A DNA stretch of 64,000 nucleotides from an uncultured delta proteobacterium. GTDB taxonomy: Bacteria > Desulfobacterota > Syntrophorhabdia > Syntrophorhabdales > WCHB1-27. Position 1 is the stretch's first letter; each line of letters opens with the position of its first letter. The stretch is taken from contig CAWGEZ010000060.1 of NCBI GenBank assembly GCA_963821605.1, positions 9,915 through 73,914 of the forward strand. The letters are read 5' to 3'. Below are positions 19,369 to 61,601 of the stretch, piece after piece. Position numbers and translations under genes: made by a program. The notes under the pieces were generated by a model that saw only the letters and a list, made by a program, of their open reading frames with translations, made no database searches and was not told the DNA's origin.

Positions 19369-19483
19369 TATGCCAGGTCGAATTTTGATGATTGCCGAGG
19401 CGACCGAGGAGGAGTGGATAGCGCAGCATCCTGTAAGGACGACGTAAGGCAACGAAGGCAGGCGCAAAAGACGACGTGGCATA
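19369..19483. mobile_element. MITE-like intergenic element, family A copy 2
   Basis: It runs TATGCCAGG...TGGCATA. It shares GAATTTTGATG..GAGGCGA.CCGAGGA and GGCAACGAAG..AGGCGCAAAAG blocks with the reverse complement of 760..889. It lies between the two M24 peptidase copies. Confidence 0.6.
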
Positions 19484-19504
19484 TGGACTTTTGACGAAGC
19501 CGTC

Positions 19505-20712
19505 CTAGACATACACGACGTCGATTGGGGAAGTCTACTATCCTTTCCAGCCCCTGCTTACGGACGATGAAGTCCACCTCAATCCCTACGGAGCCTTCAC
19601 CGGGAAAGATGAATTTAGGCTCAAAGGCAAATACCATCCCTTCCTTGAGGACCCTGCTGTGGCGGGAAGTGATAACGGGCAGCTCATTGATCTCCAGACC
19701 CAGGCCGTGGCCGATGAAAGAGACCTGACCTTCCCCGAATCCCATGAAATGATCCTCCAGTTGTGCCCTTTTCACCAGTTGAACGGCCCTGTTGAATATC
19801 TCGGTGCAATCTATGCCTTCCCGGCCGAAGCTCGTCACATCTTCAACGATCTCCCTTGCGACCTCGTAGGCCTTCTTGAAAGGCTCCTTCATGTCGCCCA
19901 CGACGTATACCCGTGTTTCATCCGTTACGTAGCCGTTGTAACCACCGCCGTAATCGACCAGCACCGGCACGCCTCGTTCCACGGGCTTCAGGGAAGAACC
20001 CTGTGCGATGGCCGCTGTCAGCCCGAGTCCTGCATATCGGCACATCCGCATGGGATGGGATTCCGCTGGTTGCACCTGCTGTCACGTACAGATTCATCAT
20101 CTCCTGGTTGAAGCCGCGCATGCGCAGGAAACCTTGATGGCCGTATCTTCTGCCTTCAGCCACGAGTTCCGCATCGATATCGATCTCCCTTATGCCCTCG
20201 CGGACTACATGCTTTGCCTTTTCAAAAATGCGGGCAATGATCCGGCCGGATCGTTTTATCTGCTCAAGCTCAAAAGGAGCTTTTCATTATCCTGAGCTCA
20301 CGGACGAGGGGCGTGACGTCCACAAATCTATCGAAGCCGACAATAGTCTTGAACCTCTCGAAAACAGAAACCGGTACAACGTCCAGTTCCATACCCCCCT
20401 TGCCTTTCAGTATCCCCTTTTGCAGGAGGATCGCCCCTATATCTTTGTCTTTTTTTATCGGCGTGATGTGTCGAGAGGCGTCTCCGCATTCACCCGCTCA
20501 AGGCTCCTCTCCACAAAAAGAAGAGGGTCATCGTCGAGTGGTATCACCATGACGCCTTTCTGTATAGTGCCACTGAAATAGAAGAGGTCGGCATTCTGCA
20601 TGATGACGGAAAAACTGATACCTGCTTCCGCCATTTTCTCCTTGAGGCCATTGATGCGCCGCAGCAGCTCTTCTTTTGGTGTGTAATCAGAAGCCACGAG
20701 ACTTTGCCACAT
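19505..20712 (-). pseudogene. M24-family metallopeptidase, tandem paralogue copy B; at least 4 frameshifts
   Basis: The N-terminus is 20455..20712 (MWQSLVASDYTPKEELLRRINGLKEKMAEAG). The middle fragments lie in other frames. The C-terminal half is inside the 19269..20075 ORF (VDYGGGYNGYVTDETR, GHGLGLEINELP). The probable stop is at 19505. Confidence 0.65.
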
Positions 20713-41237: not shown

Positions 41238-43223
41238 ATGGCAGAGGAAAAAACGATTACCAGCATGAGTACGGAAACGCGGACCTTTCCGCCGAGCGCG
41301 GAATTCGTGGCGCAGGCCTACGTTAAGAGCAGGGCTGAGTACGAGAAACTCTACAAGCAATCGATGGACGACCCTGCGGGGTTCTGGGGTGGAATCGCGT
41401 CAGAGCTGCACTGGTTCAAGAAGTGGGACAAGGTGAACGAAGAAGACTTTGCGAATGCAAACATCAAATGGTTCATCAATGGCAAGACGAATATTGCTTA
41501 CAACTGTCTTGACTACCAGATCGAGAAGGGAAGGGGCGACAAGGTAGCCATCATCTTCCAGGGCGAGCCGGATGAAGATGCGAAGAAATACACATACAAG
41601 GACATGCTGAGAGAGGTCTCCAAGTTTGCCAACGTGCTGAAGAAAAAGGGCGTAAAGAAAGGTGACAGGGTCGCCATATACCTGCCCATGATCGCTGAGT
41701 TGTCCATCGCCATGCTTGCCTGCGCAAGGATCGGCGCAGTCCACACAATCGTATTCGGCGGGTTCTCCGCAGAAGCCTTGAGAGACAGGATAATCGATGC
41801 AGGAGCACACGTTCTGGTCACGGCCAACGGCTACTGGAGATCAAGCAAACAGGTAAGCTCGAAGGCATCCGCAGACACGGCCATGGACCTCTGCGAAAAG
41901 GCAGGGCATAAGGTTGACACGGCCATCGTGGTCAAGAGGCTCGATAAATTTGACGTGCCCATGAAGGCCGGAAGAGACACGTGGTGGAACGATGAAATGG
42001 CCGCCCCGGACATCACCGACAAGTGTCCGGCGGAGCAGATGGATGCTGAGGATCCCCTCTTCATCCTCTATACGTCAGGATCGACCGGTAAGCCGAAAGG
42101 CGTTATGCATACGATCGGCGGCTACATGGTCTATACGTACATTACATTCAAATGGATCTTTGATTACAAGGAAAAGGAAGTCTTCTGGTGCACCGCTGAC
42201 ATCGGCTGGGTAACCGGACACTCTTACATTGTTTACGGTCCTCTCGCCAACGGCGCCACATCGATTATCTTCGAGAGCGTTCCTACCTTTCCGCAGCCTG
42301 ACAGGTTCTGGCAGATCGTCGAGAAGTTCAAGGTTAATATTTTCTATACAGCCCCGACAGCCATCAGGGCCATCATGAGGGAGGGTGATGAGTGGCCGAA
42401 AAAGAGAGACCTTTCCTCACTGAGAGTTCTCGGGTCCGTGGGTGAGCCGATTAACCCCGAAGCATGGATCTGGTATCACAAGTTTATTGGTAATGAACGG
42501 TGCCCGATCGTGGATACATGGTGGCAGACGGAAACGGGCGGCATTCTGATTACTCCGCTTCCCGGCGCATGGTTCACGAAGCCCGGCTCAGCAACACTGC
42601 CCTTCCCGGGCGTTGCAGCAGAGTGCATAAGACAGGATGGAACGCCGTGCGCTGTCAATGAGGGCGGCTACCTGGTAATAAAGAGATCGTGGCCGGGTAT
42701 CATGAGAAGCGTGTACGGCGAGCCGGAGAGATTCAAACAGACGTACTTTGTGCAGTATCCCGGCGTCTACTTCACCGGTGATGGCGCCAGAAAAGACGAA
42801 GACGGCTACTTCTGGCTCATGGGACGCGTTGATGATGTTGTTAATGTATCCGGCCACCGGATTGGCACTGCCGAGGTGGAGAGTGCGCTTGTGTCACACA
42901 AGTCAGTTGCAGAGGCGGCTGTCGTGGGATTCCCGCACGACATAAAAGGCGAGGATCTTTACGCATTTGTCATCTTGAAAGCCGGATTCAACCCGAGCGA
43001 CGATCTCAAGAAAGAGCTCGTTGCGCACGTGAGAAAAGAGATCGGACCGATCGCCTCTCCCGGGAAGCTGCAGTTCTCACCCGGCCTGCCGAAGACGAGA
43101 TCCGGTAAGATCATGAGAAGAATCCTGAGAAAGATCGCATCCGGCGAGATCGATCAGCTTGGCGATACCACGACCCTGGCCGATCCGTCAGTTGTCGATG
43201 AGTTGGTGAAGAACAGGCTGTAA
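41238..43223 (+). CDS. acs: Acetyl-CoA synthetase (AMP-forming)
   Basis: RBS GAGGAGG is followed by ATG at 41238. The 661-aa protein carries [20 protein letters not shown] and [10 protein letters not shown]. The listed ORF start at 41007 is an upstream in-frame run. Confidence 0.95.
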
Positions 43224-43245
43224 GCCGTAAAGAACGGTTATGAAA

Positions 43246-43273
43246 AGGGGCGCCTTTCTTGGCGCCCCTTTTT
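43246..43273 (+). terminator. Rho-independent terminator of acs
   Basis: AGGGGCGCC-TTTCTT-GGCGCCCCT followed by a T-run, 23 nt after the acs stop. Confidence 0.8.
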
Positions 43274-43440
43274 GTTACGAGTTACACGTTACAGGTTGAC
43301 AATAACCTATTACAGGTTACAGGCAGCCCATGTTACGAGCAATGAATGTAACCGCGCCGAAGGCGCGCTAACCTGTAACAGGTCTTATTGTAACCCGCAA
43401 CGGCCCGGTGCAACCGGGCCTAACGCGAAGCTACGCTCCG

Positions 43441-48180: not shown

Positions 48181-49571
48181 ATCCAGATAGACAGTTTTTC
48201 CGAGCTTGTTTTTAACGTTTACGAGGCATTTACGGTGGCTTTGCTTCTTAAGGATGAAGAGCGCTTTCGCTGTCTCTCTTCGGTTACTTTCGCCAAGAGT
48301 TTTGACCGGGACCGAACTATCCCCATCGAAGGGACACTGCCCGGATGGGTGCTCAAGCATAATGAGCCCCTGATCATTCCCAACTTCGACAAAGACGAAT
48401 CGACGCTCGGGTATTATGGGTCCGAAGAGGGCATCAAGTCCTTCATGGCCTACCCCCTTGAGGCCCCGGGGGTCATCGTGGTGGATAGCAAGAAGCGTTA
48501 CGTCTTCACGGACCGGGAGAAGAAACTGCTCGGTCACTTTGTGTTGATGATAGGGAAAGAACTGGAGAAGGAGAAAAGGCTGCAGGAGCTTGAAGAGAAA
48601 AACGAGGATCTCTCCATTGAGCGCAGAATTATTCGGTCTTTTCTGAAGCCAGGATTGTCGGAGGTATCACTGGAGGAAGTGCTGGAAGAGTGCCTCACCC
48701 TCTGTCAAGGAGACTTCTGCTTCATCGGAGTTGAACGAAATGGTAAGCTTGTCATCGTTGATTGCGCAGGGACCGAAGCGAACAACCTCCGGCTGAAAGA
48801 GTGCCCTATGACAGGGACTGTTGCCTCGATGGTTTTCGAAGGAAGGAAAGAGTTCTTACTCCCGCACGGCAGCGGCTATCTCAGGGAAAAACCGCTTCTG
48901 TTTTCCGACGATGGCTTGAAGGCAAAACAGTTTTTTGGATTTCCCCTTCTGTTCGATGAAGAAGCATTTGGGACTTGCGGGCTTCGTTTCTCTTTCCGAT
49001 GTGGGGCTGAGAGATGGCGTTATAGGCCTGTTGAGGGACATCTCATCGTTATTGTCCCTCTATTTTATACGCGAGCTGGACCAAAGGAACTATCGAAAGA
49101 GGCAAATCGGTTGATCCGGTGACAGGAGCGCTCCTTTTTGCCCCCTTCTTTAAAAAGATAGAGGCGTGGATTCAGGAGAGGAAGGATTTTTCCCTGGTAT
49201 CGGTAAAGGTGCCGGGATTTCATGCGTACAACCGGCTGCTCGGTGTGGAGGCTACGGATCGCGTGCTCCGGAAAATCGTCCAGAGTGTCGAGCAGTGCCT
49301 CGGCAGGACGGCTCTCGTGACGAAAGCGGAAGTGAGCCATTTCTACGCGGTCACACGAGACCCCCAGGCTCTGGAGGCGGAAAATATGACGCGCGTATTG
49401 AACTACACGATACTGAGCGCCATGGCAGATAGCCGGATCGAAACAAAAGGAGCATTACAAATCGGCGTGGTTGAGTTCCCTGGAGACGGTGAGAGTCTCT
49501 GGGCACTCCTGGACCGGGCTGACGAACGGGGAGAACGACAGTCCTACATGAACAGGGGGGCACGAGCATGA
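48178..49571 (+). CDS. GAF-GAF protein with a degenerate GGDEF-like C-terminal domain (at least two frameshifts)
   Basis: There are two GAF-like segments (48178..~48560 and ~48640..~49000). DPVTGAL...VKVPGFHAYNRLLGVEATDRVL aligns with the start of a GGDEF fold, but SHFYAV replaces GGDEF. Start and stop overlap the neighbouring genes by 4 nt. Confidence 0.5.
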
Positions 49572-50606
49572 GTTTTATTTCAAAATTGATGGGTATGGTT
49601 TCATCATTTTCCACGCATTGCGCCATGGACCTTGGCACGGCCAACACGCTGATTTATCTGAAGGGCGAAGGCATCGTGCTGAACGAGCCGTCGGTCGTGG
49701 CTCTTGAAAGGGACACCGGGAGGGTTATTGCCGTGGGCCGAGAGGCAAAAGAGTACATTGGCAAAACACCCCCGCACATCAGCGCAATCCGGCCGCTCAA
49801 AGACGGAGTAATCGCGGATTTCGATGTGGCCAAGGCGATGATCAAGTATTTTCTGAACGTGGTCAAAGAGACGCGGAAGATTTCGAAGCCCAAAATGGTG
49901 GTCTGTGTGCCGTCCGGAATAACGCAGGTTGAGAAGAAGGCGGTCGTTGATGCCTGCTTTCAGGTTGGTATCCGGGACATCCATCTGATCGAAGAACCGA
50001 TGGCTGCCGCAATCGGGGCTGAACTGCCCATAGAGCTCCCCAGAGGAAACATGATTTGCGACATCGGCGGCGGTACGACAGAGGTGGCGATTATCAGCCT
50101 TTCTGCAAACGCGTACAGCGAATCCTTGCGCGTAGCGGGTGATGAGATGGATGAAGCCATTGTGAGGCATCTGCAAAAGAAGTATCAGGTTGCTGTGGGA
50201 GTGAATGCGGCGGAGAGAATCAAGATGGAGGTCGGTTCAGCTTACCCGGGCGCTGCGTCCGGATCAATGAACGTTGTGGGCAAGGATCTCGTCAACGGCA
50301 TTCCCAAGACCATTGCCGTTACCGCGGACGACGTGAGGGAGGCAATAGAAGAGCCGGTAGAGGCGATCATAGATGCGGTGAAGAGGGCTCTGGAGAAACT
50401 TCCGCCGGAGCTCGTTTCAGACCTGAAGGACTCGGGCATGGTGCTGACTGGCGGCGGTGCACTTCTCAAGGGGCTGGATAAGAGGATATCGGAACGGACG
50501 AGCCTCGAAGTCCACGTGCCTGAGGATCCGTTGATCTGCGTCGTCATGGGAAGCGGCAGGGCGCTGGAAGAGATACAGCGCTATCAAGAAGGTGTTTATC
50601 AACTAG
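49568..50606 (+). CDS. mreB: Rod-shape-determining protein MreB (frameshift near 50582)
   Basis: MDLGTANTLIYLKGEGIVLNEPSVVA, ISAIRPLKDGVIADF and DIGGGTTEVAIISL are MreB motifs. A 1-nt shift restores the typical C-terminus ...KKVFIN plus stop at 50606. The listed ORF instead runs into a repeat. Confidence 0.9.
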
Positions 50607-50649
50607 CGCAAAACCTGTTCCTTACAGGATGCTACGCTACCGGTTACGG

Positions 50650-50744
50650 GTTACGAGTTACAAGTTCAAGAAGATGTTTCCAGATTAGCGCGCCTTCGAC
50701 GCGGTTCTGTGCATTGCCCGTAACGTCTCGCTGTAACTCGTAAC
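50650..50744. repeat. Long intergenic hairpin (GTTACGAGTTAC arms)
   Basis: GTTACGAGTTAC (50650-50661) pairs with GTAACTCGTAAC (50733-50744). It lies directly after the restored mreB stop. Confidence 0.55.
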
Positions 50745-51658: not shown

Positions 51659-52830
51659 CTAGTACAGGAACATCGGCTTGCCCAACATGTTCCTGATCTT
51701 GGCCCGGTAGTTCTGCGCGTCGTAGAGGGCGGTGATGTCTACATGTTTTTTTGCGGCGATCACGAGTTCAATAGGTACGGTTGTATAAATGCCCTGATGA
51801 AGCGCTACCATCCGTCCCATGTGACCAAGAGCCACCTGGTCCAGGGCGAGATTGCCATACGAGACAGCGACCATGCGGTCGAGGGAGTCAGGGCGCCCCG
51901 GAACGCATAATGTAGGCGAGTTGCTGGTAGATGATGTTGACGCCCGTTCTCTTTCTTGATCTCTTCGGCCACGATCGCGCCAATGCCGCCAAGCTTTTTG
52001 TGACCGTACGCGTCTTCCTTGCCGGTTTCGATGATTGCACCACCCACGGGGTAGGCGCCTTCCGATATGGTCAGGACTGCGTAGTTTGACGGGTTTCGGG
52101 AACGATCGTCCACAAGAAATCCGCAAAGGCGGTCCAGGTCAAAAGGCACTTCTGAAATGACCGCGCGATCCACATCCGCCAGGTATGCGGCAAACAACGA
52201 TGTCTCGCCTGAGTTACGTCCGAAAAGTTCCACGACGCCTATGCGCTCATGCGAGCCCATGGTGGTGCGCAGTGCGTGGATGGTGTCGACGGAACGCGTG
52301 ACGGCTGTTGAGAAGCCTATGCAGAAATCCGTGCCGAAGACATCGTTGTCCATGGTCTTCGGGATGGCGACGATCTGGACACCCTCCTTGTGCAGACGAC
52401 AGGCGAAACTGAGTGTGTCGTCGCCGCCTATGGGTATGATGGCATCGAGCTTCAGGAATTCGATCACCCTGAGTATATGACGGGTACAATCGATTTTACC
52501 TTTGTCTATTGGGGTGCGGTCTTCCGCACGAACATATTCGGGTACCTCGTCCGGCTTCATGCTGCTCGGGTTTGTGCGTGACGTATGAAGAAATGTGCCA
52601 CCTGTTCGGTCGATGGTCCGAACAGTCTCTTCGGTGAGAGGAATGATATGCCGATTCGCCGATGGCGGATCGTCCGGGTTGACACAGAGAAGGCCCTGCC
52701 AGCCTGTCCTGATCCCGATGATATCGATGTCATGCGGGGGGGCCTGCGAGACAACCACCTTGATGGCAACGTTCAGACCGGGGACGTCTCCTCCACCCGT
52801 AAGGATGCCAACGCGTCGTCTTTCTGCCAT
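51659..52830 (-). CDS. pfk: 6-phosphofructokinase (ATP- or PPi-dependent) (frameshifts near 51910 and 51960)
   Basis: VGILTGGGDVPGLN, IPIGGDDTL, PKTMDNDV and a C-terminus in the 51659..52126 frame. Confidence 0.85.
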
Positions 52831-52908
52831 AGTGACCTCCCCTGGCGAATGTAACTGCTAACATCCATGGCCCGCATGTCCCACCTTGAATGGCGGCGGG
52901 TTGTTGAA

Positions 52909-52937
52909 AGTATGACCCGAGGTACACTGTTTGTCAA
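52909..52937 (-). promoter_or_regulatory. Putative sigma70-type promoter upstream of pfk
   Basis: On the minus strand: TTGACA (52937-52932), a 17-nt spacer, then CATACT (52914-52909). It lies about 80 nt upstream of the pfk ATG. Confidence 0.35.
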
Positions 52938-53020
52938 GCAGTGTCACCCTTCGTTATCCTATTCTATCCGGCTATTCTCAGCATGGGGACCACAGTCTAA
53001 TGGGCATCCTTCCGCCCACT

Positions 53021-53660
53021 TCACAGCCAGCTTACTGATTTTGCCAATGTAGGATATTCGACGGAAGGAGGTTGATAGTTGTCTGCCGGATATCCCAGCG
53101 CGCATCCATCAAGCGCATATTCCCCGGCGGGAATATTCAAGAAGTCTGCAAAAATCCGGGTCGCTATCCATTTGCGTCGTTGCACTGACAAGTTGAAGGC
53201 CAATACCGAGTGACGTTGCTTTCAGCCACATATTCTGCAGGCAGTAGCTCAGCGATTGCGCGGCAATTGGAGGCATTCCTTTTCTTTCTCCGACAACAAC
53301 AAAATACGGTGCATTACCGACACCGGGTACGCCTTGTTGTCCGATTCGCTTCATATTCTGCACAAAAGGAACAGGTCCCACCTTCTTTTCAAGTTCATCG
53401 GCAATCTTTGCCATCCGATTCTTGAGAATATCCGCTGCGGCTTCCATGGCTGATGACGAGCTTCGAATCACGAATACCTTTCTAAAGTCAGGTTTCCCGG
53501 CAACTGCAAGTGCTCCAAATGGAGCTAACAGGCCCGCTTGGATTATTGCTTCAATAGCCTCTTTTCCTGGCGGGATAGGGCTAAATGCTCTTACTGAGTG
53601 CCGTGCTCTTACAATGACATCGAGGGCTGCACTATGTTCGGGGGTGATGTTTTCAAACAT
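53021..53660 (-). CDS. Nitroreductase-family protein (frameshift near 53130); possible distal cassette
   Basis: RHSVRAF, the GLLAPF pattern and LKATSLGIG are nitroreductase-like. The C-terminus lies in the 53021..53203 frame. Confidence 0.65.
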
Positions 53661-53688
53661 GTTGTTCTCCTTTCATGTGTCATATCTT

Positions 53689-53750
53689 GGCTACGCCTAA
53701 TATGGCCATCACCGGGCGCGGTACGCGATCCGGTGCATGGCATCGTTACG
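53689..53750 (-). repeat. attC-like site 7 (after RHH-mazF unit)
   Basis: Minus strand: GCGTAAC-GAT-GCCATGCACCGG-loop-CCGGTGATGGC-CATATTAGGC-GTAGCC. R'' overlaps the mazF stop. L'' has one extra G relative to L'. Confidence 0.5.
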
Positions 53751-54081
53751 CAATGATCTCGTTCAGACCTTCAACTACCTGAATCATTTCTTCCTGAGAG
53801 GCCTTTCCTATAACCTTTCCGATTCTCTCCACGGAAAGGGTTCGGATTTGACTAATCTTCACCCATGACTGCTTTGGTAGATTGCCGGTTCTAAGTTCAA
53901 ATGTTAAAGGGAATCCCGCTTTTTGGTGCTGGCTTGTGATTGCGACGGCTATGACAGTTCCGGAACGTTCGTTAAAAATATCGTGGCTGAGGATCAAAAC
54001 AGGACGACGCCCGGTCTGTTCGCGACCTCGCGTGGGATTTAAGTCCGCCCATCGAATCTCCCCCCTTAGTATTCGGGCCAT
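53746..54081 (-). CDS. mazF: MazF/PemK-family type II toxin (mRNA interferase)
   Basis: 111 aa: GEIRWADLNPTRGREQTGRRPVLILS...TVIAVAITS. Confidence 0.85.
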   Translation of the reverse strand: MARILRGEIRWADLNPTRGREQTGRRPVLILSHDIFNERSGTVIAVAITSQHQKAGFPLTFELRTGNLPKQSWVKISQIRTLSVERIGKVIGKASQEEMIQVVEGLNEIIA

Positions 54082-54308
54082 TGGCTCACATCCTCGGTCA
54101 GTCCTTCCTCGGCCATTGCTTTCTCAGCCACGCGGTCGAGCCTAGCACATTCGATCGCGAGTCGGCTTCGTTTCAGTCGCAGCAGCTTTTCACTCACTGC
54201 TTCCTGGATGACCTGGCTGCGGCTTTGATACACATGCCTCTTGACCAACCCATCTAATTCGCCAATGAATTCCTTATCCAGTGTAATTGCTATCTTTTCT
54301 TTAGCCAT
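54066..54308 (-). CDS. Ribbon-helix-helix (CopG-like) antitoxin of the downstream MazF
   Basis: MAKEKIAITLDKEFIGELDGLV...SRSQVIQEAV. It overlaps mazF by 16 nt. The start is taken at the internal ATG 54308, behind RBS GGGAGGG. Confidence 0.7.
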   Translation of the reverse strand: MAKEKIAITLDKEFIGELDGLVKRHVYQSRSQVIQEAVSEKLLRLKRSRLAIECARLDRVAEKAMAEEGLTEDVSQWPEY

Positions 54309-54329
54309 TCTCCCGCCCTCCCGATAATA

Positions 54330-54348
54330 GTATGACATTATATCATAC
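54330..54348 (-). promoter_or_regulatory. Palindromic operator overlapping a TATAAT box upstream of the RHH-mazF pair
   Basis: The minus strand reads GTATGATATAATGTCATAC. This is GTATGA / TCATAC arms around TATAAT, 20 nt upstream of the antitoxin ATG. Confidence 0.45.
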
Positions 54349-54384
54349 CATCAAGCATGCGAGCAACTACTCGGTCGATTCTGA

Positions 54385-54441
54385 GCCGAACATGAAAATC
54401 AGCGGGGGCTGTGAGACCTCCGCTGCATTGCCTTGCTGGGC
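54385..54441 (-). repeat. attC-like site 6 (after SnoaL unit; R'' unclear)
   Basis: Minus strand: ...AATGCAGCGG-AGGTCTCACAGCC-CCCGCTGATTTTCAT-GTTCGGC. It is homologous to sites 2 and 3. It lies 75 nt after the stop, and the R'' box is not obvious. Confidence 0.4.
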
Positions 54442-54516
54442 GGTCATCAAAATGTGTCACTTCATCACATTTCAACATTTCAAGAGCGTCTCGGTCGCCC
54501 AGGCCAACCGCGACCA

Positions 54517-54867
54517 TCAGCCTTTGGACAAAATCTTTGCGGCAAACGACTGGGTAACGATTTTGCCGCCCTGAACGACGAAGGTGTCTGTCGCCAGGTC
54601 GTAAGTGTTGTCGGCCGTCTCGGCGGTCCACAAAATATAGGCGTAGTCACCTTTGATGGACTGGTGCCTCAATTCAAACGAAGAACCAGGCTTTGCGAAC
54701 TCTGCCAACAAATGCTCGAATAACGGTCTGATGGCGTCGACTCCCAGCAACGGCCCGTCAGGCGTGAACAAGATTGACATGGGAGTGTAGTCGGAGAGGA
54801 TGCCATTGAGGTCGCCCTTGCCAAAGCACATCAAATGGTTGTCCAGGACTTCTTTCGTCGTCTTCAT
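54517..54867 (-). CDS. SnoaL-like / NTF2-fold protein
   Basis: 116 aa from the internal ATG 54867 (MKTTKEVLDNHLMCFGKGDLNGILSDY...ILWTAE...TDTFVVQGGKI). Confidence 0.65.
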   Translation of the reverse strand: MKTTKEVLDNHLMCFGKGDLNGILSDYTPMSILFTPDGPLLGVDAIRPLFEHLLAEFAKPGSSFELRHQSIKGDYAYILWTAETADNTYDLATDTFVVQGGKIVTQSFAAKILSKG

Positions 54868-54929
54868 TGCTACTCCTCGTTTCGTGGTTGCTGTTTTATA
54901 GAATGTAGACACTCATTCGGTATAAAATT

Positions 54930-54988
54930 CCTATACCCAGATTGGCGTCACCTGATCTTGGGCCGATCTGCGGCATCATCTGTTAGCC
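54930..54988 (-). repeat. attC-like site 5 (after methyltransferase unit; degenerate R')
   Basis: R'' GGCTAAC overlaps the stop. The internal GATCGGC...GTGACGCC is homologous to site 4. The 3' end reads GTATAGG instead of GTTRRRY. Confidence 0.35.
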
Positions 54989-55540
54989 CTTTTCTAATAT
55001 CACTGCCCTATTAGGAAATATTCTTGGCCTTTCAACAGGTATGAGGCCTGTATCCCGTGCTTTTCTGATGGTCCGCTCAAATGCCGTCTTTGAGGTATGC
55101 AATGGCGGCTCGACGATGAGAACTTGTCCGTTTGGCTTAAGTATTGATATTATCTCGTTGAAAAAGTCTTCCTGATTGGGAATTTCGTGAACCATATAGA
55201 ATGCCAGAACAAAATTAACACGCTCTGACAAACCCAACGTGTCCTTTTCGCACTTATGCAGGGTGATACGCTCTTCAAGTTCTGTTCCCTGAATTTTCTT
55301 TCTTAGTTTCCGAAGCATCCCTTCCTGCAAATCTGCAGCAATGACCCTACCTGATTTGCCAACCATCTGGGCTAGTTCAATGGAGAAAAAACCTGGGCCG
55401 CAACCTACATCCAGGACTGTCATTCCTTCTCTGACATAGGGTCCGAGTATTTTGTGAGGGTTTTGTAACCATCTTCGGATTCTATTGTCGAGACCACTTG
55501 CTAACGTAACCGGGCATACACGATTCTTTTCATCGGCCAC
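54983..55540 (-). CDS. Class I SAM-dependent methyltransferase
   Basis: 185 aa. Motif I is VLDVGCGPGFFS, followed by VIAADLQ. Confidence 0.8.
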   Translation of the reverse strand: MADEKNRVCPVTLASGLDNRIRRWLQNPHKILGPYVREGMTVLDVGCGPGFFSIELAQMVGKSGRVIAADLQEGMLRKLRKKIQGTELEERITLHKCEKDTLGLSERVNFVLAFYMVHEIPNQEDFFNEIISILKPNGQVLIVEPPLHTSKTAFERTIRKARDTGLIPVERPRIFPNRAVILEKG

Positions 55541-55560
55541 TATGCCCGTCTCCTCTCTGT

Positions 55561-55626
55561 GGCTAACGCCTGCATAACCGGGAGGCGACGCCGTTTGTTG
55601 CCGATCCGGTTCATGCGGTGTTAGCC
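55561..55626 (-). repeat. attC-like site 4 (after GNAT unit)
   Basis: Minus strand: GGCTAAC-ACC-GCATGAACCGG-ATCGGCAACAAACGGCGTCGCCT-CCCGGTTATGC-AGGC-GTTAGCC. The R boxes are perfectly complementary. L'' has one extrahelical G. Confidence 0.65.
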
Positions 55627-56127
55627 ACTTGCACTAAAGCCTTCATGGAATACTACCGTACCGCTGGTCTTGCTCTCCTCGAACGGCAACGCAAGAAAGT
55701 ACTGTTGTGGAACGCCGTCAATAAATAAGTCCGTGAGATTTCTAAAGCCGAACCTTTCATAGTAACCAGGGTCGCCCACGAGCACGCAACCTTTTGCACC
55801 CAATGCCTTTAGCAAAGAAAGACCTTCATAAACCAGGGATTTTCCAATACCCTGCTTCTGTAATTCTGGTACGACAGAGATGGGACCAAGACCATACCAA
55901 TCAGGGCTACCATCGGAAATGGTCACAGGCGAAAATGCTATGTGGCCTACCACCTTCTTCTCAACTTCTGCAATCAGCGAGATTGTGAGCGCTTTTGCAT
56001 CTCGTAATGCGCAAATAATGAACTGCTCCGTGTGGTTACTAATGGCAAGACTCTCAAAAGCTGCTTTGGTGATTTCGGATATTGTTTCAACGTCTGACCC
56101 GATTTCATTCCGAATAATGATGTTCAT
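55621..56127 (-). CDS. GNAT-family N-acetyltransferase
   Basis: 168 aa from ATG 56127. The acetyl-CoA site is VVPELQKQGIGKSLV. It looks YhbS-like overall. Confidence 0.8.
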   Translation of the reverse strand: MNIIIRNEIGSDVETISEITKAAFESLAISNHTEQFIICALRDAKALTISLIAEVEKKVVGHIAFSPVTISDGSPDWYGLGPISVVPELQKQGIGKSLVYEGLSLLKALGAKGCVLVGDPGYYERFGFRNLTDLFIDGVPQQYFLALPFEESKTSGTVVFHEGFSASG

Positions 56128-56161
56128 GTCTGACTCGCACCCCATGGCTTATTTACTGATG

Positions 56162-56218
56162 GCTCAACATGAAGTTCAGCCGGCGCTGCAAGCGATCGGC
56201 TGCAACGGCTCGTTACCC
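56162..56218 (-). repeat. attC-like site 3 (after phd-parE unit)
   Basis: Minus strand: GGGTAAC-GAGCCGT-TGCAGCCG-ATCGCTTGCAGCG-CCGGCTGA-ACTTCAT-GTTGAGC. R'' spans the parE stop codon. Confidence 0.6.
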
Positions 56219-56512
56219 GCCGCCGCTTTCAGGTTCTTGAGGTAACTGAGCGCTATGCCATGCGGCAACGATCCATACAGTTTCATCTTTGATTCTGTAG
56301 AAGAACCGATATGGCCTCACAATCACTTCACGAAAAGGGAGATCCGAGAACTCCGGAACCAATCTCCCGGATTCTGGAAACTTTGTCAGGCGAGAAAGCG
56401 TCTTCTCTGCCCTCTTGCGGAAACTTATGGCACCCGAAGGGTTATCCCGGTAAATGTAAGCAATTGCTCCAAGAAACTGGCGGCGGCCCGTCGGGGTGAA
56501 AAGAACTCTCAA
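56213..56512 (-). CDS. RelE/ParE-family type II toxin
   Basis: 99 aa with ...PESGRLVPEF....REVIVRPYRFFYRI.DETVWIVAAWH. Confidence 0.8.
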   Translation of the reverse strand: MRVLFTPTGRRQFLGAIAYIYRDNPSGAISFRKRAEKTLSRLTKFPESGRLVPEFSDLPFREVIVRPYRFFYRIKDETVWIVAAWHSAQLPQEPESGGG

Positions 56513-56790
56513 GGCCTTGAAGTCTCAAGAAACCGGTCGGCTTCTTTCAAAACGTCGTCAAGTTCATAGCCGACGCCCGCCCCTATTTCTTTCTCACCAA
56601 GAGCCAGTAACCGTAAGATGTCAAGCTCATGCTGGAACTCTTCATAAACCTGCATGCTGACCATGACTGCGGCCGCTCGTCCGCGCTGGGTGATAAAGAC
56701 AGGTTCTCTGGACGATGAAACGCCTTTGACAACATCGCTCGCGTTTTGTCTCAGGTCGGAAATAGGTATGATCTTTGGAGCCTTAGGCAT
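56509..56790 (-). CDS. Phd/YefM-family antitoxin
   Basis: 93 aa: IPISDLRQNASDVVKGVSSSREPVFITQRGRAAAVMVS. There is a 4-nt overlap with the toxin. Confidence 0.8.
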   Translation of the reverse strand: MPKAPKIIPISDLRQNASDVVKGVSSSREPVFITQRGRAAAVMVSMQVYEEFQHELDILRLLALGEKEIGAGVGYELDDVLKEADRFLETSRP

Positions 56791-56808
56791 TGCTTGTACC
56801 TCCTATGA

Positions 56809-56845
56809 TACTATTAATAGTACTACAGGCGGGTACCGTCGTCAA
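56809..56845 (-). promoter_or_regulatory. Putative promoter plus palindromic operator of the phd-parE unit
   Basis: Minus strand: TTGACG (56845-56840), a 17-nt spacer, then TACTAT (56822-56817). The perfect palindrome TACTATTAATAGTA (56809-56822) covers the -10 box. Confidence 0.5.
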
Positions 56846-56868
56846 GATTTCTGCCTCAGTCTTCTTAC

Positions 56869-56927
56869 GGGTAACACCATGATCAGCAGCGAGTATAACG
56901 AGTCGGCTGCATCAATTTGGCCCGCTT
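56869..56927 (-). repeat. attC-like site 2 (after antitoxin-mazF-like unit)
   Basis: Minus strand: AAGCGGGCCAAATTGA-TGCAGCCGACTCG-TTATA-CTCGCTGCTGATCATGGT-GTTACCC. The L boxes are homologous to sites 3 and 6. The R'' box is poor. Confidence 0.45.
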
Positions 56928-57251
56928 CTAATGGATGTCTAGTTGAACCTTGATGGCTTCCTCTACCTTGTGCATGTCCTCCTGGGATAGGATACTAGCG
57001 CGTTTGAAAAGCCGCTCTTTGCTGACCGTTGCGAGTTGGTCCGCCATAGCCTTACTTTTCTTGCCTTCAAAAACGACTGCGCCCTCACTCGGGTAGAGCT
57101 TGTCCACGTTGCTGGTGAGAGGAACAACCTGGACTCGGTTGAGGAATCGGTTGGAGGCATCATTGCTTACAATCACTGCAGGTCGCTTTTTCCTCACCTC
57201 TCCGCCTATAGAAGGATCAAAGTTAACCCACCAAATCTCACGCCGCTTCAT
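56928..57251 (-). CDS. MazF/PemK-family type II toxin, second copy
   Basis: 107 aa: [28 protein letters not shown]...VQVVPLTS. Confidence 0.85.
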
Positions 57252-57466
57252 GCTATGTCCTTAAAGGTGGCCTCGGCCCACTCAACGGCCTCCTTCTCTC
57301 TTTTTTTGTCCTTCGCCATATCGGCGTATGCCGATGCCAGGTTGGGACGAACGACATGCGGACGAACCAATTCTTGCACGAACCTGCTTATTTTGCGAGG
57401 ACCAATGGTCTTGTGGAGTCCTTCGTAGACCTCTTCATCCACCGTTATGGTCAGCTTCTTCTGCAT
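57248..57466 (-). CDS. Antitoxin partner of the second MazF-like toxin
   Basis: 72 aa beginning [17 protein letters not shown] (RHH-like start). There is a 4-nt overlap with the toxin. Confidence 0.6.
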
Positions 57467-57482
57467 TGCACGCCTCCATTAT

Positions 57483-57517
57483 ACGTATACTATACGTGTA
57501 GTTGAGCGGCGTGTCAA
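57483..57517 (-). promoter_or_regulatory. Putative promoter plus palindromic operator of the antitoxin-mazF-like unit
   Basis: Minus strand: TTGACA (57517-57512), a 17-nt spacer, then TATAGT (57494-57489). The perfect palindrome ACGTATA-G-TATACGT (57483-57497) covers the -10 box. Confidence 0.5.
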
Positions 57518-57586
57518 TTGCTCATTGTTTTTGGGGCCAACGAAAAGCTCACCTGCGCGGCGGACAGGAAGAGGGGTATGGGAAAG

Positions 57587-57641
57587 CCTTAACGGGATGA
57601 ACCAGATATTCTCCCGCGTCAGGTGCAGCGCCTTGTTCGCT
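57587..57641 (-). repeat. attC-like site 1 (after hicBA unit)
   Basis: Minus strand: AGCGAAC-AAGGCGC-TGCACCTGA-CGCGGGAGAAT-ATCTGGTTCA-TCCC-GTTAAGG. R'' overlaps the hicA stop. Confidence 0.55.
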
Positions 57642-57865
57642 CACAAAAGCTGTTTCAACTGTTCTATTGAGATCTCACAATCCCGGAGGATTTGAGCCAA
57701 CAGCCCTCGACCAATTGTTTCACCGCTATGAACTGGCACTGTGGTACATCTGCCGTCAGAATGCTGAAGGAAATGGTGGCTGCCTTTCTTGCGAATGACC
57801 TCGAAGCCCGTTTTCCGAAGAGCCTTGACGAGTCGTTGGCCCGTAACGGCAGGAAGAGTGCTCAC
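57641..57865 (-). CDS. hicA: HicA-family toxin (mRNA interferase)
   Basis: GTG start at 57865. The 74-aa protein carries GQRLVKALRKTGFEVIRKKGSHHFL. Confidence 0.8.
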   Translation of the reverse strand: MSTLPAVTGQRLVKALRKTGFEVIRKKGSHHFLQHSDGRCTTVPVHSGETIGRGLLAQILRDCEISIEQLKQLL

Positions 57866-58071
57866 GCGTTGACCGCCACACGTTGAACGCCTATGAATTC
57901 GGTGGGTATCGGGTCCTCCACCTCGAGGCAAAGCTCAATTGCCTCTTTTACTCTTTTCATAAGGACGTCAAGTGACTTTGCCTGTGTATGACATCCCCGT
58001 AAGGCGGGTACCGATGCTACAAAATATCCGTCCTCGTCTTTCTCGATAACTACGCTGAATTCTCTGATCAT
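57862..58071 (-). CDS. hicB: HicB-family antitoxin (short UPF0150 type)
   Basis: 69 aa: FSVVIEKDEDGYFVASVPALRGCHTQAKSLDVLMKRVKEAIELCLE. There is a 4-nt overlap with hicA. Confidence 0.8.
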   Translation of the reverse strand: MIREFSVVIEKDEDGYFVASVPALRGCHTQAKSLDVLMKRVKEAIELCLEVEDPIPTEFIGVQRVAVNA

Positions 58072-58309
58072 TTCCTTAATCCTCCATACCTTATAATATC
58101 ACAGAGGAAACGTCGCTTCATCTTTTCTTTAGCGAACAATTAATATACGGTGCCCGTCTTTTCTGACATCTTATACCGTTGTCGAAAAAATGCAATAACA
58201 AAATGTTCAGCAAAAGCAATAACTTAACTTATGGCTACTTGGCAATTGGTCGATAATATCAGGAAAGGCGGGGTTGGTTTTTCCTGGCACCCCATTATAG
58301 CCCATTAGC

Positions 58310-58447
58310 ATGGACCTGAAAGATATTCTCCCCGAGTTCCAGACGTTCCTCCGGGAACGAAGAATAGTCCACCAGAATAGTATACTCTGCTACGCTGTTT
58401 GGGCCAGCAAATTCCTGGGCTTCGCTCTCATGAATCACAACCCGTGA
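58310..58447 (+). pseudogene. Remnant (45 codons) of an integron-integrase-like tyrosine recombinase N-terminus
   Basis: MDLKDILPEFQTFLRERRIVHQNSILCYAVWASKFLGFALMNHNP followed by a stop. The F..FL...(9-12)...Y..W...FL.F pattern resembles the N-terminal SAM-like domain of IntI-type recombinases. It is divergent from the cassettes, and nothing downstream in any frame continues it. Confidence 0.4.
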
Positions 58448-58651
58448 TTGACCGCGTATACTGAGGGCTGCGCGGCGCGCTACGTGAACAACAGTTCGGT
58501 ACCGGCCGGGCGAGTTTCGATGGATACCGCGAAGACAAGGGGCCGCCGACCGGAGGCGTAGCAGCGCTACGTTGAGGACCGTGCGCGAAGGCGATAGCGA
58601 AGCATCCTGTAAGGACAAAGGTAGGCGCGAAAGGCGCCCGGCCGCTTCCCG

Positions 58652-59959
58652 CTATCTCACGAGATTAGACAGACACAGCACCGTCCAATACGGCGACACC
58701 ATCAAGCATATAATCGATAGAATATATGACGGGATATAATAAAGCCCGCCCCGAAAGACCGTTGCCAGCGGAATATCTTTTGCCATGCCTGCGACCACGT
58801 AGCAACATATCCCGATCGGTGGCATGATGGAACCCATGGTCGTCACGATGGTGATGACCTGGCCGAACCAGATCGGGTCGTAGCCCATGTGCGTGACGAT
58901 GGGATAGAAGATGGGCAGGGAGACGAGCAGGAAGGCGAGCGCGTCCATCACGCAGCCCCCGATAATGTAACAGAACAAGACTATCCAGAGGAGGATCCAG
59001 TTCGGGAGAGCCAGTCCGCTGATCCAGTCCGCGGCCTCAAACGGAAGCCGGGTAACCGTGAGAAAACGGCCGAAAATAACGGCCCCTGCCACGATCATGA
59101 AGACAAGACAGGAGATGCGCAGGGTGTCGACGATGGATAAGATGAAATGTTTCCATGTCAGCTTCCGGCGCACGAGGCAGATGATAAGGCCGAGGGCGCA
59201 GCTTGCTGCGGCTGCTTCGGTGGCAGTGACAACACCTGTAAAGAGGGCGTACATGATGATGGCAAAGAGGATCAGGATATCGATGATGTCCGGAAGTGCC
59301 TTGAACCGTTCCCGCCATGAGCTTTTGTCGCCGGCAGGTCCCCAATCCGGATGGCGCCAGCAGATGTAGCCTACGGTCGCTGCAATAAGAACAGTCAGTA
59401 TGGCGCTCGGTATTACGTTGCCGAAAAAAAGTTTGCCTATGGACTGGCCGGTGTATAGCCCGTACACGACGAGCACGATGCTCGGAGGGATCAGAACACC
59501 GAGGGTGGCCCCGGCCGCAACAGAACCGGCGTTAAGCATGGGGTGATAGTTATATTTTCTCATGGCCGGGATCGCCACCTGGCTCATGGTGGCTGCTGTT
59601 GCGGTGTTACTGCCGCTTATGGCTGAAAAGGCTGCGCACGCCATGATGGTGGTGATGGCCAGTCCGCCCTTGTAATGACCGAACCATTTGTAGGTCGCGT
59701 GATAGAGCCCGTCGTTGTAGCCCGCGTAGTGGACAAATTCGCCCACGAGAATAAACATGGGGATAACGGTGAGCCCGTAATTTGAGAAAATGTTCCACAT
59801 GTCCGTACCGATCATGCCGAGAGCTGCCGGCAGAGAGGTCACATAAGCAAATCCCAGGAATCCGACAATGGCCATGGTGAACCCTGCAGGTATCCTGAAC
59901 AGAAATAGCACGGCAAACATCACCACGATCCCGTATACACCAACGATAGGGCCTTGCAT
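58652..59959 (-). CDS. dctM: TRAP transporter large permease
   Basis: Intact 435 aa, polytopic, immediately downstream of dctQ. Confidence 0.9.
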   Translation of the reverse strand: MQGPIVGVYGIVVMFAVLFLFRIPAGFTMAIVGFLGFAYVTSLPAALGMIGTDMWNIFSNYGLTVIPMFILVGEFVHYAGYNDGLYHATYKWFGHYKGGLAITTIMACAAFSAISGSNTATAATMSQVAIPAMRKYNYHPMLNAGSVAAGATLGVLIPPSIVLVVYGLYTGQSIGKLFFGNVIPSAILTVLIAATVGYICWRHPDWGPAGDKSSWRERFKALPDIIDILILFAIIMYALFTGVVTATEAAAASCALGLIICLVRRKLTWKHFILSIVDTLRISCLVFMIVAGAVIFGRFLTVTRLPFEAADWISGLALPNWILLWIVLFCYIIGGCVMDALAFLLVSLPIFYPIVTHMGYDPIWFGQVITIVTTMGSIMPPIGICCYVVAGMAKDIPLATVFRGGLYYIPSYILSIICLMVSPYWTVLCLSNLVR

Positions 59960-59961
59960 GC

Positions 59962-60448
59962 TTACTCCTCTCCCGGGGCGAATATGTTCTTCAGGAAGTC
60001 AACAAAAGCGGTAAGGGATACCACTGCAAACGCAAGGGCGACGGCAAAAACGAAGGGATGATAGATCACCTTCAAGGTCTCTGAGACCTCGTGGGATACA
60101 TATATCTTCATACCCCAGACGAAAATCTGCCAGGAGACAATGGCGAAAAATAGCGTGATCACAAGGTAGGCGAAGGTATCGACGCCCTTCTGCAGTTTTT
60201 TTGGAAATCGCTCCGTGAGAATTTCCACGATAATGTGGTCCTTCCTTCGCTGGGTGTAACCAAGGGCAAAGGCTATGACAATAGCTCCAAGGAAGGCTAC
60301 GATCTCGTAAGCCCCGCGAAAGGGCAGATGAAATACCCTGAGCACAACGTTGCCGGTGGCAAGGGTCATGAGCGCAAGAACGGCAATGCCGCCGAGGATC
60401 ATAAGGACCTTGTTAAGAATGTTGGTTAACAGTTCGAGATATCTTCAT
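59962..60448 (-). CDS. dctQ: TRAP transporter small permease (frameshift near 60415)
   Basis: About 160 aa with 4 TM segments. ATG 60448 (MKISRTVN..) joins the 59962..60402 frame. Confidence 0.8.
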
Positions 60449-60568
60449 CCCAGTCCTCCACTAATGGGACACCCGCAAGGCGGGTACCCTGCTCACCGTG
60501 CGATCTGCTCGTCATGGAAAAGGCGCCCGGATGGCATTACTCCGGACACCTTTTCCATGAACGCTCAG

Positions 60569-61601
60569 TTACTTGAACTGTTTTTCGTATTTGTCCTTAA
60601 GCTTGTAAATATCGCTGAGGACCTGTTCCCCCGGAGTCCCCTGCGGGGTCACCCTCTTAACATACTCGTCCATCATGGGCTTGACGAGTTTCGGGATTTC
60701 AGTATACTCGGCGGCCGGCAGCCGAAAAACCTGGTGGCTATATTTTTCCTTTGACCAGGCAAGGGCCTCCTTGACGTGGTCATCCACGTATTTGCCCGTC
60801 CAATCCGCCTGCTCTCGCCTCAAGTCATCCAACACCTTTTTGACGTTAGCGGGCATAGCATTCCATTTGTCCTTGTTCATGACAACGGCGAAGGTAACAA
60901 CGAAGAGGTTCGCCTCAGTTGCGTACGGGCAATAAGCAGCGAAGTTGAAGTCCTTCAGTATCTCCATCGAGGAAACGATGCCCTTCACTACGCCTTTCTG
61001 GATGGCCTCGGGTGTTTCCGACTGGGGCATGGCGACAGGGGTGCCTCCGAGACGGGTGATGACTTCCGCCCCCGTACCCGAAACACGCAGCTCCATCCCT
61101 TTTAGGTCTTTCAGCGATTTTACCGGGGTCTTGGTCATGAAGTCTGCCGGCGGGCAGGTGAACAGGGTTAAGATCTTTACTTTTTCGAATTCCTTTGGAT
61201 ACTTTTCAACGAGATCGTAGAGGGCAAGACTGGCAGCCCTGGCACTGGTGAAGCCGATGGGAAGATCGACTGCTTCGGAAACAGGGAAGCGCCCCGGCTG
61301 ATAGCTCATCGCAAAGTTCCCGATATCTGCTGTGCCGGTGATGACGCCGTCAAATATGTTCTTGGCAGGGAGAAGCGTGCCGCCCGGGAACGTCTTTACC
61401 GAAACGGCATTGTTGGTTCTTTTCTCCACTTCCTTTGCCCATCTCTCCATCTGGACACACGGGAACGTTGTCGCCGGAGGAAAATTGGCGTACGTCAAGG
61501 TTATCTTCTGCTGGGCCCCGGCCAGACTCGGGTGCGACAAGGCTTGCACCCATCAGCAAACTGATCCCCAAAAACATCACGAGCGTTTTTTTGAGAAGCA
61601 T
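60569..61601 (-). CDS. dctP: TRAP transporter DctP-type substrate-binding protein (frameshift near 61545)
   Basis: The signal peptide MLLKKTLVMFLGISLLMGASL lies in the 61350..61601 frame. The body is 60569..61549. It is a paralogue of 26156..27179. Confidence 0.85.

Follow-up and report, generated by a model that had tools for sequence, protein, structure and literature searches.

A chromosomal gene-cassette array in a Syntrophorhabdales genome, very probably an integron that has lost its integrase

Many clusters of attC recombination sites are found without an integron integrase, and the source of these clusters is an open question. In a survey of such elements, referred to as clusters of attC sites lacking integron integrases (CALINs), recognisable intI pseudogenes were found near 15 of 279 CALINs, and integrase loss was proposed as one origin (Cury et al. 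2016, PMC4889954). The attC sites are characterised by a 6-bp stem that separates extrahelical bases at positions 16 and 23/24, and by unpaired spacers of 5-6 bases (PMC5027507; also PMC4889954). Here, a stretch of 64,000 nt (contig CAWGEZ010000060.1, positions 9,915-73,914), referred to as the window, was analyzed; coordinates are those of the window, and L-numbers denote retrieved related loci. Its minus strand carries a cassette array at 52950-58137 (genes at 53021-58071), which is very probably a chromosomal integron that lost its integrase, i.e., a CALIN in the terms of IntegronFinder. The locus is a new and clear case of a familiar type of element, with eight cassettes, six recognisable attC sites, a predicted attI at 58137 and, distally, a border at about 52950 (Table 1). 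An integron-type cassette array had been claimed in an initial annotation of this DNA, and the claim is borne out by two attC models, by the geometry of the sites, by a remnant of intI and an attI, and by the mobility of the cassettes.

The remnant of the integrase gene is found at the head of the array. The relatives found via DctM are metagenome-assembled genomes labelled Syntrophorhabdales, Syntrophorhabdaceae or “delta proteobacterium”. In one of these (L001, DATFYE010000146), the next gene after the orthologous dctM, on the opposite strand, encodes an integrase (IntI; L001:11555-12829, minus strand) of 424 aa, which scores 414 bits on the TIGR02249 “integron integrase” profile (cutoff 265). 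A tblastn search of the window with this protein gave a sole match at 58310-58426 (56% identity, E 2e-9). Pairwise alignment, in a comparison that covers the dctM side, showed that window 58310-58425 corresponds to the 5' end of the L001 intI gene and window 58424-58520 to its 3' end, including the stop codon and the downstream DNA; hence, about 1.13 kb has been deleted inside intI. A deletion of this size cannot be a sequencing error. The fused remnant lacks the entire catalytic domain, and a functional integron integrase was not found in the 64 kb, where tblastn revealed the stub only and a Pfam search of 20 open reading frames (ORFs, chiefly of at least 250 aa) gave no integrase. In a second relative (L003, CAWGRP010000019), a frame-broken integrase homologue is found after the same dctM.

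The predicted attI site is located between this remnant and the first cassette. This region and its L001 counterpart have conserved blocks in common up to ..TATTAATTG/TT (the slash marks the crossover), where the similarity stops, and a hicBA cassette that is common to the window and L096 begins at the same G, 58137. Just upstream of attI, a candidate Pc promoter (ATGTCA-16-TATATT, 58169-58142) is sigma-70-like at 9 of 12 positions, which is a consensus match only. The G at the crossover is also the upper coordinate that had been assigned to the array in the initial annotation, which missed the intI remnant, the attI and a distal border that can be fixed. The ancestor of the locus was a complete integron between dctM and pfk, with intI on one strand, and attI and the cassettes on the other.

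The integrases of this group are 424-453 aa long (L001:11555-12829 and L082:2073-3434, both on the minus strand), and the match to TIGR02249 begins only at residue 103-139. In front of it lies an additional N-terminal segment, a second Phage_int_SAM_4-like domain that scores 30.6 bits in L082 and 17.8 bits in L001, and it is from this domain that the window stub at 58310-58447 derives.

No Rfam family matched the window or the region of attI and the remnant, at gathering or relaxed thresholds, and because there is no matching family Rfam is unusable as a test for attC. Two covariance models that contain no window sequence were used. The first (R1) was trained on nine attC sites from the arrays of L003, L001 and L038, where the L003 and L001 arrays adjoin integron integrase genes, and the second (R2) on eight class 1 attC sites from plasmids, a class known from experiment. 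In the model alignments the variable terminal structure was trimmed to a 4-nt loop for gapless alignment; MAFFT misaligned full-length attC sites of unequal length. With filters off, R1 gave five matches in the window at E <= 0.003, all on the minus strand and all within the array, while the next, unrelated match scored 10 bits. In 80 control loci (1.35 Mb) the same model recovered its training sites and two more sites in the same arrays, and nothing outside integron arrays. Applied to four clinical plasmids, it detected the attC sites of aadA1 (40.2 bits), aac(6')-IIa (37.9), aadA13 (28.0), blaOXA-2 (27.7), blaOXA-101 (20.6) and aacA4 (17.1). The four best window matches of R2 are the sites S4, S6', S3 and S7, followed by a match at 12.5 bits; S2, S5 and a hairpin at 52910-52959 were below significance. 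Because of the trimmed loop, the 107-nt S1 exceeds the model window and is therefore shown by an alignment over its full length with the long attC sites of L003, L001 and L038. In total, six attC sites, spaced 0.5-1.3 kb, are supported by a model or by alignment. A covariance-model search had been proposed at the outset as a check of the claimed array, and sites of the array are matched both by R1 and by the class 1-based R2.

The geometry of the sites was examined by scanning both strands for a pattern taken from the classical aadA1 attC, i.e., ..AAC, a spacer of 4-6 nt, 3 bp, one bulged base in the 5' arm and 6 bp, followed in the mirror arm by 6 bp, 3 bp, a spacer of 4-6 nt and GTT, with at most one mismatch across the two triplets. 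Eight matches were found in the 64 kb, of which six lie on the minus strand at 52910-57641, behind gene units, and in all six the bulged base is G. A first-order Markov simulation yielded an expectation of 1.6 +/- 1.2 matches per 64 kb for both strands. The same scan of 1.35 Mb of related loci gave 64 matches, which is the background rate, clustered only in the L003 array. The 3 bp-bulge-6 bp pattern with spacers of 4-5 nt is seen in S1, S3, S4, S6' and S7 in the strict scan, and, apart from one mismatch in the stem, in S2; the same five sites also have an unpaired A at position 23 of the top strand, and it was read by eye in S2. Folding gave bipartite stems of R and L boxes, in which a 6-bp stem separates the extrahelical bases at 16 and 23 on the AAC-carrying arm (coding strand), and the aadA1 attC shows the same bulge pattern in the comparison made here. 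The best L-helix in the window is that of S1 (3 bp-G-6 bp-A-5 bp), and the DNA fold of S4 gave z = -5.1 for the coding strand (window minus) and z = -7.0 for the window plus strand. A terminator scan found a T-tailed hairpin at none of the sites. The folding check that had been suggested thus yielded bipartite stems with extrahelical bases rather than terminators. A constrained minimum-free-energy ranking of all AAC..GTT pairs was dropped, because the energy scales with length, which makes the ranking useless; long coding-region segments ranked top.

Both crossover triplets (R'' ..AAC and R' GTT..; consensus RYYYAAC / GTTRRRY) are intact in S1, S3 and S4 only. One triplet has changed in each of S2 (AAA), S6' (AGC) and S7 (ATT), and S5 has TTT. 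At sites 3, 4, 5 and 7, R'' contains the stop codon of the preceding gene, and at site 1 the two have one base in common; five overlaps had been proposed in the initial annotation. The palindromes had been described there as 55-66 bp in length and located 0-75 nt after the stop codon, but site 1 is 107 nt long and site 6 is found 76 nt past the stop. Sites 5 and 6 had been described as degenerate. In S5 only R'' and a decayed stem are left, and site 6 is the palindrome at 54385-54441 and not the hairpin at the stop. The latter hairpin, directly after the SnoaL stop codon (z = -2.8), was considered and rejected as attC; the models place the site at 54385-54441. At 54480-54520 in cassette 6, the sequence after the SnoaL stop forms a G+C-rich hairpin, GGTCGC-N11-GCGACC, 40 nt before the attC and without a T-run.

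Comparison of the array with those of its relatives demonstrates, at the level of sequence, past mobility of at least two cassettes, hicBA and GNAT. The segment L096:81-585 matches window 58137-57633 at 96.8% identity, compared with 84% in the adjoining pfk region. The hicBA cassette follows attI in the window and an attC site in L096, and in both the identity begins at the G of GTTCGCT. Close homologues of the GNAT protein number in the hundreds. One of these, 87% identical, belongs to a same-strand array in L082/L083 that lies behind an integron integrase (452 bits); another belongs to an array without an integrase in L084-L089, at the same chromosomal site, and a third stands alone in L081. 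At the nucleotide level the GNAT cassette is 84-89% identical between the window and other arrays. The homology begins at window 56164-56169, where the predicted cassette start is 56167, and its end is at 55620 in L082-L089, where R'' has its last base, and at 55595, 26 nt into attC, in L081. Furthermore, the first six bases of cassettes 1 (TTCGCT), 2 (TTGGCC), 3 (TTACCC) and 5 (TTAGCC) are the exact complement of the cassette's own R'', and the first bases of cassette 4 match with a 1-nt indel. Such complementarity would be expected if each unit was once circularised via its own attC. Self-complementarity or a unit shared with other arrays is seen for cassettes 1-5, to which this demonstration is confined.

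At L096:575-600 only AGCGAAAAATTGTTCGAAC is left of the hicBA attC, in essence a fusion of R'' and R' from which the whole L box and the variable structure are gone; a brnT/brnA-type pair is found directly after this reduced site. At L081:3652-4224 a lone GNAT cassette, 89% identical, with only the first 26 nt of attC, is located between genes for a major facilitator superfamily transporter and a flavin mononucleotide reductase, and may have inserted outside an array. Related metagenomic contigs contain a second chromosomal integron site beside a 4HBT/DUF4442 thioesterase gene, with an integrase in L082/L083 and without one in L084-L089; therefore, integrase loss seems to be recurrent in this group.

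The locus is polymorphic among relatives that have the same flank, as had been proposed as a check. The dctM flank is shared with L001, L002 and L003 at 96-97% aa identity, and the nucleotide homology with the closest relatives extends from dctM to about window 58488, where it stops. All three relatives have an integron integrase and/or wholly different cassettes, and none of the window cassettes is present in L001 or L003. Insertion sequences (ISs) interrupt the relatives' arrays, IS66 in L003 and IS3 in L001. On the other side, other cassettes abut pfk in L095-L098, and from window 52949 downward the pfk flank is 84% identical to these loci at the nucleotide level. The distal border, which had been left open in the initial annotation, is thereby set at about 52950, as judged from this pfk-flank homology. 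In the P0248 contig the synteny xdh-voc-dctPQM ... pfk ... mreB-GAF is kept, and rubrerythrin, PAS, aminotransferase and saccharopine-dehydrogenase genes replace the integron; in the P0241 contig pfk is 93% identical and a saccharopine dehydrogenase gene is found beside it.

The hairpin at 52910-52959, which passed the geometric filter, was taken as an eighth attC and then rejected; it is unconserved in L095-L098, and R1 gave nothing and R2 8 bits. It is probably not an attC site because it lies inside the conserved pfk promoter (the pfk-flank homology starts at 52949). The earlier statement that no convincing attC follows the nitroreductase gene thus stands.

The gene content that had been read from the minus-strand units agrees with the Pfam assignments (Table 1). 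Four of the eight cassettes are predicted toxin-antitoxin (TA) pairs. Three of these are assigned to type II TA families by Pfam (HicB/HicA, Phd/ParE and RHH/PemK, the RHH_1 match being weak); in the fourth predicted pair the toxin is PemK and the 72-aa partner has no Pfam match. The G+C content is 45-52% in the array and 55-60% in the flanks. On one side the array is flanked by the operon dctPQM of a tripartite ATP-independent periplasmic (TRAP) transporter (58652-61549) and on the other by pfk (51659-52830), followed by mreB. Neither a tRNA gene nor another integrase was found at the borders, and a Pfam gene scan revealed no IS in or beside the array. The integron array accounts for the patch of low G+C, the dense packing on one strand and the interrupted synteny between dctM and pfk.

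No attC survives in cassette 8, the last of the array, where only an R''-like GGATAAC is seen at 52953-52959, and the frame of the nitroreductase gene is broken, while intact homologues are 212 aa long. The same frame break is present in a 94%-identical copy in L094, which sits in an unrelated gene context; the break is either real or a systematic error.

Table 1. Features of the cassette array and its borders in the 64-kb window. R1 and R2 are the covariance models trained on attC sites of related arrays and on class 1 attC sites, respectively.
Feature	Position	Strand	Description and basis
Proximal flank, outside array	58652-59959	-	dctM (Pfam DctM); ~140-nt repeat at 58480-58655
delta-intI	58310-58447	+	45-codon remnant: first ~39 codons fused to last ~8 codons and native stop
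attI/promoter region	58131-58309	-	predicted crossover between G58137 and T58136; core GTTCGCT 58137-58131
Cassette 1	57541-58136	-	hicB 57862-58071 (HicB_lk_antitox), hicA 57641-57865 (HicA_toxin); Pfam
attC S1	57535-57641	-	107 nt; R'' AGCGAAC, R' GTTGGCC; alignment and scan
Cassette 2	56875-57540	-	putative antitoxin 57248-57466, mazF/pemK 56928-57251 (PemK_toxin, Pfam)
Promoter-like site, cassette 2	57517-57489	-	consensus match 11/12
attC S2	56869-56923	-	R'' decayed to GGCCAAA, R' GTTACCC; R1 22.1 bits, E 0.003
Cassette 3	56168-56874	-	phd 56509-56790 (PhdYeFM_antitox), parE 56213-56512 (ParE_toxin); Pfam
Promoter-like site, cassette 3	56845-56817	-	promoter scan
attC S3	56162-56218	-	R'' GGGTAAC, R' GTTGAGC; R1 32.3 bits, R2 25.2 bits
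Cassette 4	55567-56167	-	GNAT acetyltransferase 55621-56127 (Acetyltransf_1/7, Pfam)
attC S4	55561-55626	-	R'' GGCTAAC, R' GTTAGCC; R1 48 bits, R2 27.6 bits
Cassette 5	54928-55566 (3' border uncertain)	-	S-adenosylmethionine (SAM)-dependent methyltransferase 54983-55540 (Methyltransf_31/25/11, Pfam)
attC S5, decayed	~54922-54989	-	R'' GGCTAAC intact (holds stop), mismatched stem, R' TTTTATA; by eye
Cassette 6	54391-54927	-	SnoaL-like 54517-54867 (SnoaL_2, Pfam)
attC S6'	54385-54441	-	R'' GCCCAGC (AAC to AGC), R' GTTCGGC; R1 24.1 bits, R2 26.1 bits
Cassette 7	53701-54390	-	RHH antitoxin 54066-54308 (RHH_1, weak), mazF/pemK 53746-54081 (PemK_toxin); Pfam
attC S7	53695-53751	-	R'' GCGTAAC, R' ATTAGGC (GTT to ATT); R1 27.2 bits, R2 17.2 bits; fold z = -3.9
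Cassette 8 (last)	52950-53700	-	nitroreductase 53021-53660 (Pfam), frame broken near 53110-53200
Distal flank, outside array	51659-52949	-	pfk (Pfam PFK) and conserved promoter TTGACA-17-CATACT 52937-52909

The data are consistent with a scenario in which IntI would have recombined folded bottom-strand attC sites (the window plus strand) with attI at G/TT. Capture by such recombination would account for the arrangement of same-strand, head-to-tail units of 540-790 bp, each terminated by attC. A later internal deletion of about 1.13 kb left 45 codons of intI, and without an integrase in cis, excision, reordering and capture of cassettes would have ended, unless an integrase elsewhere in the genome acts in trans. 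Decay of the attC sites would now be under way, with both triplets kept in three of the sites (S1, S3 and S4), compared to seven perfect sites out of seven in the strict scan of L003. The proximal cassettes would be read from the Pc-type promoter near attI, and two of the four TA cassettes (2 and 3) are preceded by promoter-like sites of their own. The four TA modules would be expected to help retain the array through post-segregational killing, a role reported for such modules in other chromosomal integrons.

Among the alternatives, the one that survives best is that the array is still an active integron, where an integrase encoded elsewhere, or the 45-residue remnant together with another recombinase, acts in trans. 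Such activity, which is considered improbable, would fit with the AAC/GTT triplets and canonical geometry kept by S1, S3 and S4, with the observation that about half of the surveyed CALINs sit in genomes that encode IntI elsewhere (PMC4889954), and with the near identity of hicBA to its counterpart in another array, which is suggestive of recent exchange. However, the IntI search of the 64 kb gave the stub alone, the Pfam-scanned ORFs included no integrase, and the 45-residue fusion is devoid of a whole catalytic domain. Furthermore, five of the eight window sites are altered in the crossover triplets or stems, whereas the seven strict-scan L003 sites, which are found beside an integrase, are all perfect. 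It is very unlikely that there never was a local integron and that the cassettes arrived by secondary-site insertion or rearrangement, e.g., by IS-mediated splitting of a remote, larger integron. Both processes have been proposed as sources of CALINs by Cury et al. (PMC4889954), and the relatives' arrays do carry ISs (IS66 and IS3), but the window array has no IS inside or adjoining it, the intI remnant and attI are in place after dctM at the same position as in L001 and L003, and the arrays of L095-L098 also abut pfk. Least probable of all, and scarcely credible, is a non-integron origin, where the palindromes would be intrinsic terminators or hairpins of the repetitive extragenic palindromic (REP) type in a TA-rich genomic island: sites 1 and 5 with flanks do fold like shuffled sequence (z about 0), TA genes cluster also in non-integron islands and the 52910-52959 hairpin turned out to be in a conserved promoter, but no site has a T-tailed hairpin, the two independent attC models match only on the minus strand in this interval, R1 recognises class 1 plasmid attC sites, the head of the array holds an integrase remnant and attI, cassette homology breaks at G/TT, and the borders are without a tRNA gene or other integrase.

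Several points weigh against the description of the locus as a chromosomal integron that lost its integrase. The integrase search spans 64 kb of the genome, and a trans-acting integrase is possible outside this stretch. S5 is matched by neither R1 nor R2, and the site after the nitroreductase gene is significant with neither model (R2 8.3 bits, E 8.6); because these sites are unrecognised by the models, the limits of cassettes 5 and 8 are in part inferred. The E-values are rough, the models being short-calibrated. An attC site was not detected at the L094 nitroreductase gene, which makes the status of this gene as a cassette less secure. Because the assembly is rich in broken frames, the single-base “decay” of attC triplets could be sequencing error. 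Finally, recombination, Pc activity and TA function are what we infer from sequence.

Broken frames are seen in many genes of the window. The genes for RelA/SpoT and an M24 peptidase are each split into two ORFs, the C-terminus of pfk is out of frame, the nitroreductase gene is broken and mreB has a long, odd tail (38591-40259, 18224-20075, 51659-52830, 53021-53660 and 49568-50743, respectively). This pattern points to an indel-rich assembly from long reads, and mass pseudogenisation is the less favoured reading. Two further features were noted in the window. A repeat with inverted ends (GGCCGGGCGCC... ...CGCCCGGCCGG) and a length of about 140 nt follows the dctM stop codon (58480-58655); a diverged copy is found at 755-895, after an ORF ending at 755. 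Other copies are located at L001:11360-11510, L002:7585-7745, L003:11300-11450 and L004:18390-18480, where the L004 copy is in a different place and in the opposite orientation, and a 24-nt piece recurs in the window at 19417, 36572, 36618, 43982 and 50619. The repeat has no Rfam match and could be a miniature inverted-repeat transposable element (MITE)/REP-like element or a structured RNA. At 43208-43338, downstream of a 738-aa ORF ending at 43223, the sequence forms a strong hairpin, rich in G+C and with a T-run, behind which GTTAC(A/G) is repeated about six times at intervals (GTTACGAGTTACACGTTACAGG...ATTACAGGTTACAGG); the arrangement looks like a putative binding-site array beside a terminator.

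An annotation at the ORF level would show just TA and hypothetical genes at this locus. The locus offers a clean comparative example of the origin of a CALIN, in which the intI deletion is visible and an intact counterpart is found after the same dctM in a sister genome, and it therefore bears on the source of integrase-less attC clusters. It also extends documented cassette exchange to an anaerobic syntrophic lineage of Thermodesulfobacteriota, with two cassettes common to different arrays; no paper describing integrons in Syntrophorhabdus was found in a literature search. The understanding of the integron mechanism is unchanged. More tentatively, the Syntrophorhabdales IntI, with their second N-terminal SAM-like domain, may form a distinct integrase lineage, and the window compared with L001 and L003 may represent a natural time series of attC sites and cassettes after integrase loss, where triplet decay would start within the divergence of close relatives and the TA cassettes would hold the array; this proposal is rather less likely than its opposite.

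Compared with described systems, the locus most resembles a CALIN. There are at least two attC sites within 4 kb in a same-strand array, no functional integrase nearby, cargo of unknown or non-resistance function and an origin by integrase loss. An adjoining TIGR02249 integrase, i.e., a tyrosine recombinase that has the IntI-specific insertion, which defines a complete integron, is absent, and a predicted attI is present. The difference from other CALINs is that the origin is directly visible in the window, from the fusion of both ends of intI and the intact attI. A 45-codon stub would be missed by the survey of Cury et al., because there the pseudogene criterion was more than 50% profile coverage (PMC4889954). 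The arrays of L001, L003 and L082/L083 have the same attC family and the same divergent layout of intI, attI and cassettes, and L001 and L003 share also the dctM flank. These relatives differ from the window in that intI is retained (424-453 aa, with the extra N-terminal SAM-like domain); L082/L083 have the GNAT cassette alone in common with the window, and L001 and L003 have none.

With the attC sites of class 1 integrons (the 59-base elements of aadA1, dfrA14, blaOXA and aacA4), the window sites share the order R''-unpaired central spacer (UCS)-L''-variable terminal structure (VTS)-L'-UCS-R' and the bulges at 16 and 23. The models cross-detect in both directions, and the arm AAGCCGACGCCG of aadA1 is similar to AACCCGACGCGG in the window. 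In contrast to class 1 integrons, the window array has neither the Tn402/3'-CS context nor resistance genes. At position 16 the window sites have mostly G on the top strand (C on the bottom strand), while the commoner bottom base is G; dfrA14 and OXA-101 also have a bottom C.

The Vibrio cholerae superintegron is similar to the array in being chromosomal, in having related attC sites (here with a shared ..G-NANCNG-A-CNCGG.. arm), in its interspersed TA cassettes, two of which are preceded in the window by promoter-like sites, and in its cargo of small enzymes and hypothetical proteins. The initial annotation had compared the locus with sedentary chromosomal integrons, and the chromosomal part of this label is apt. 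However, sedentary integrons have tens to hundreds of cassettes and, as defined by Cury et al. 2016, are found in all genomes of a species or have more than 19 attC sites, whereas the array has eight cassettes and is unfixed, i.e., among the related loci compared, some lack the integron and others differ in cassettes. In addition, the integrase of the window is destroyed, the sites are decaying and the host belongs to an anaerobic syntrophic Thermodesulfobacteriota lineage. With eight cassettes and no fixation in the lineage, the locus is therefore more accurately described as a chromosomal integron degraded to a CALIN than as a sedentary integron.

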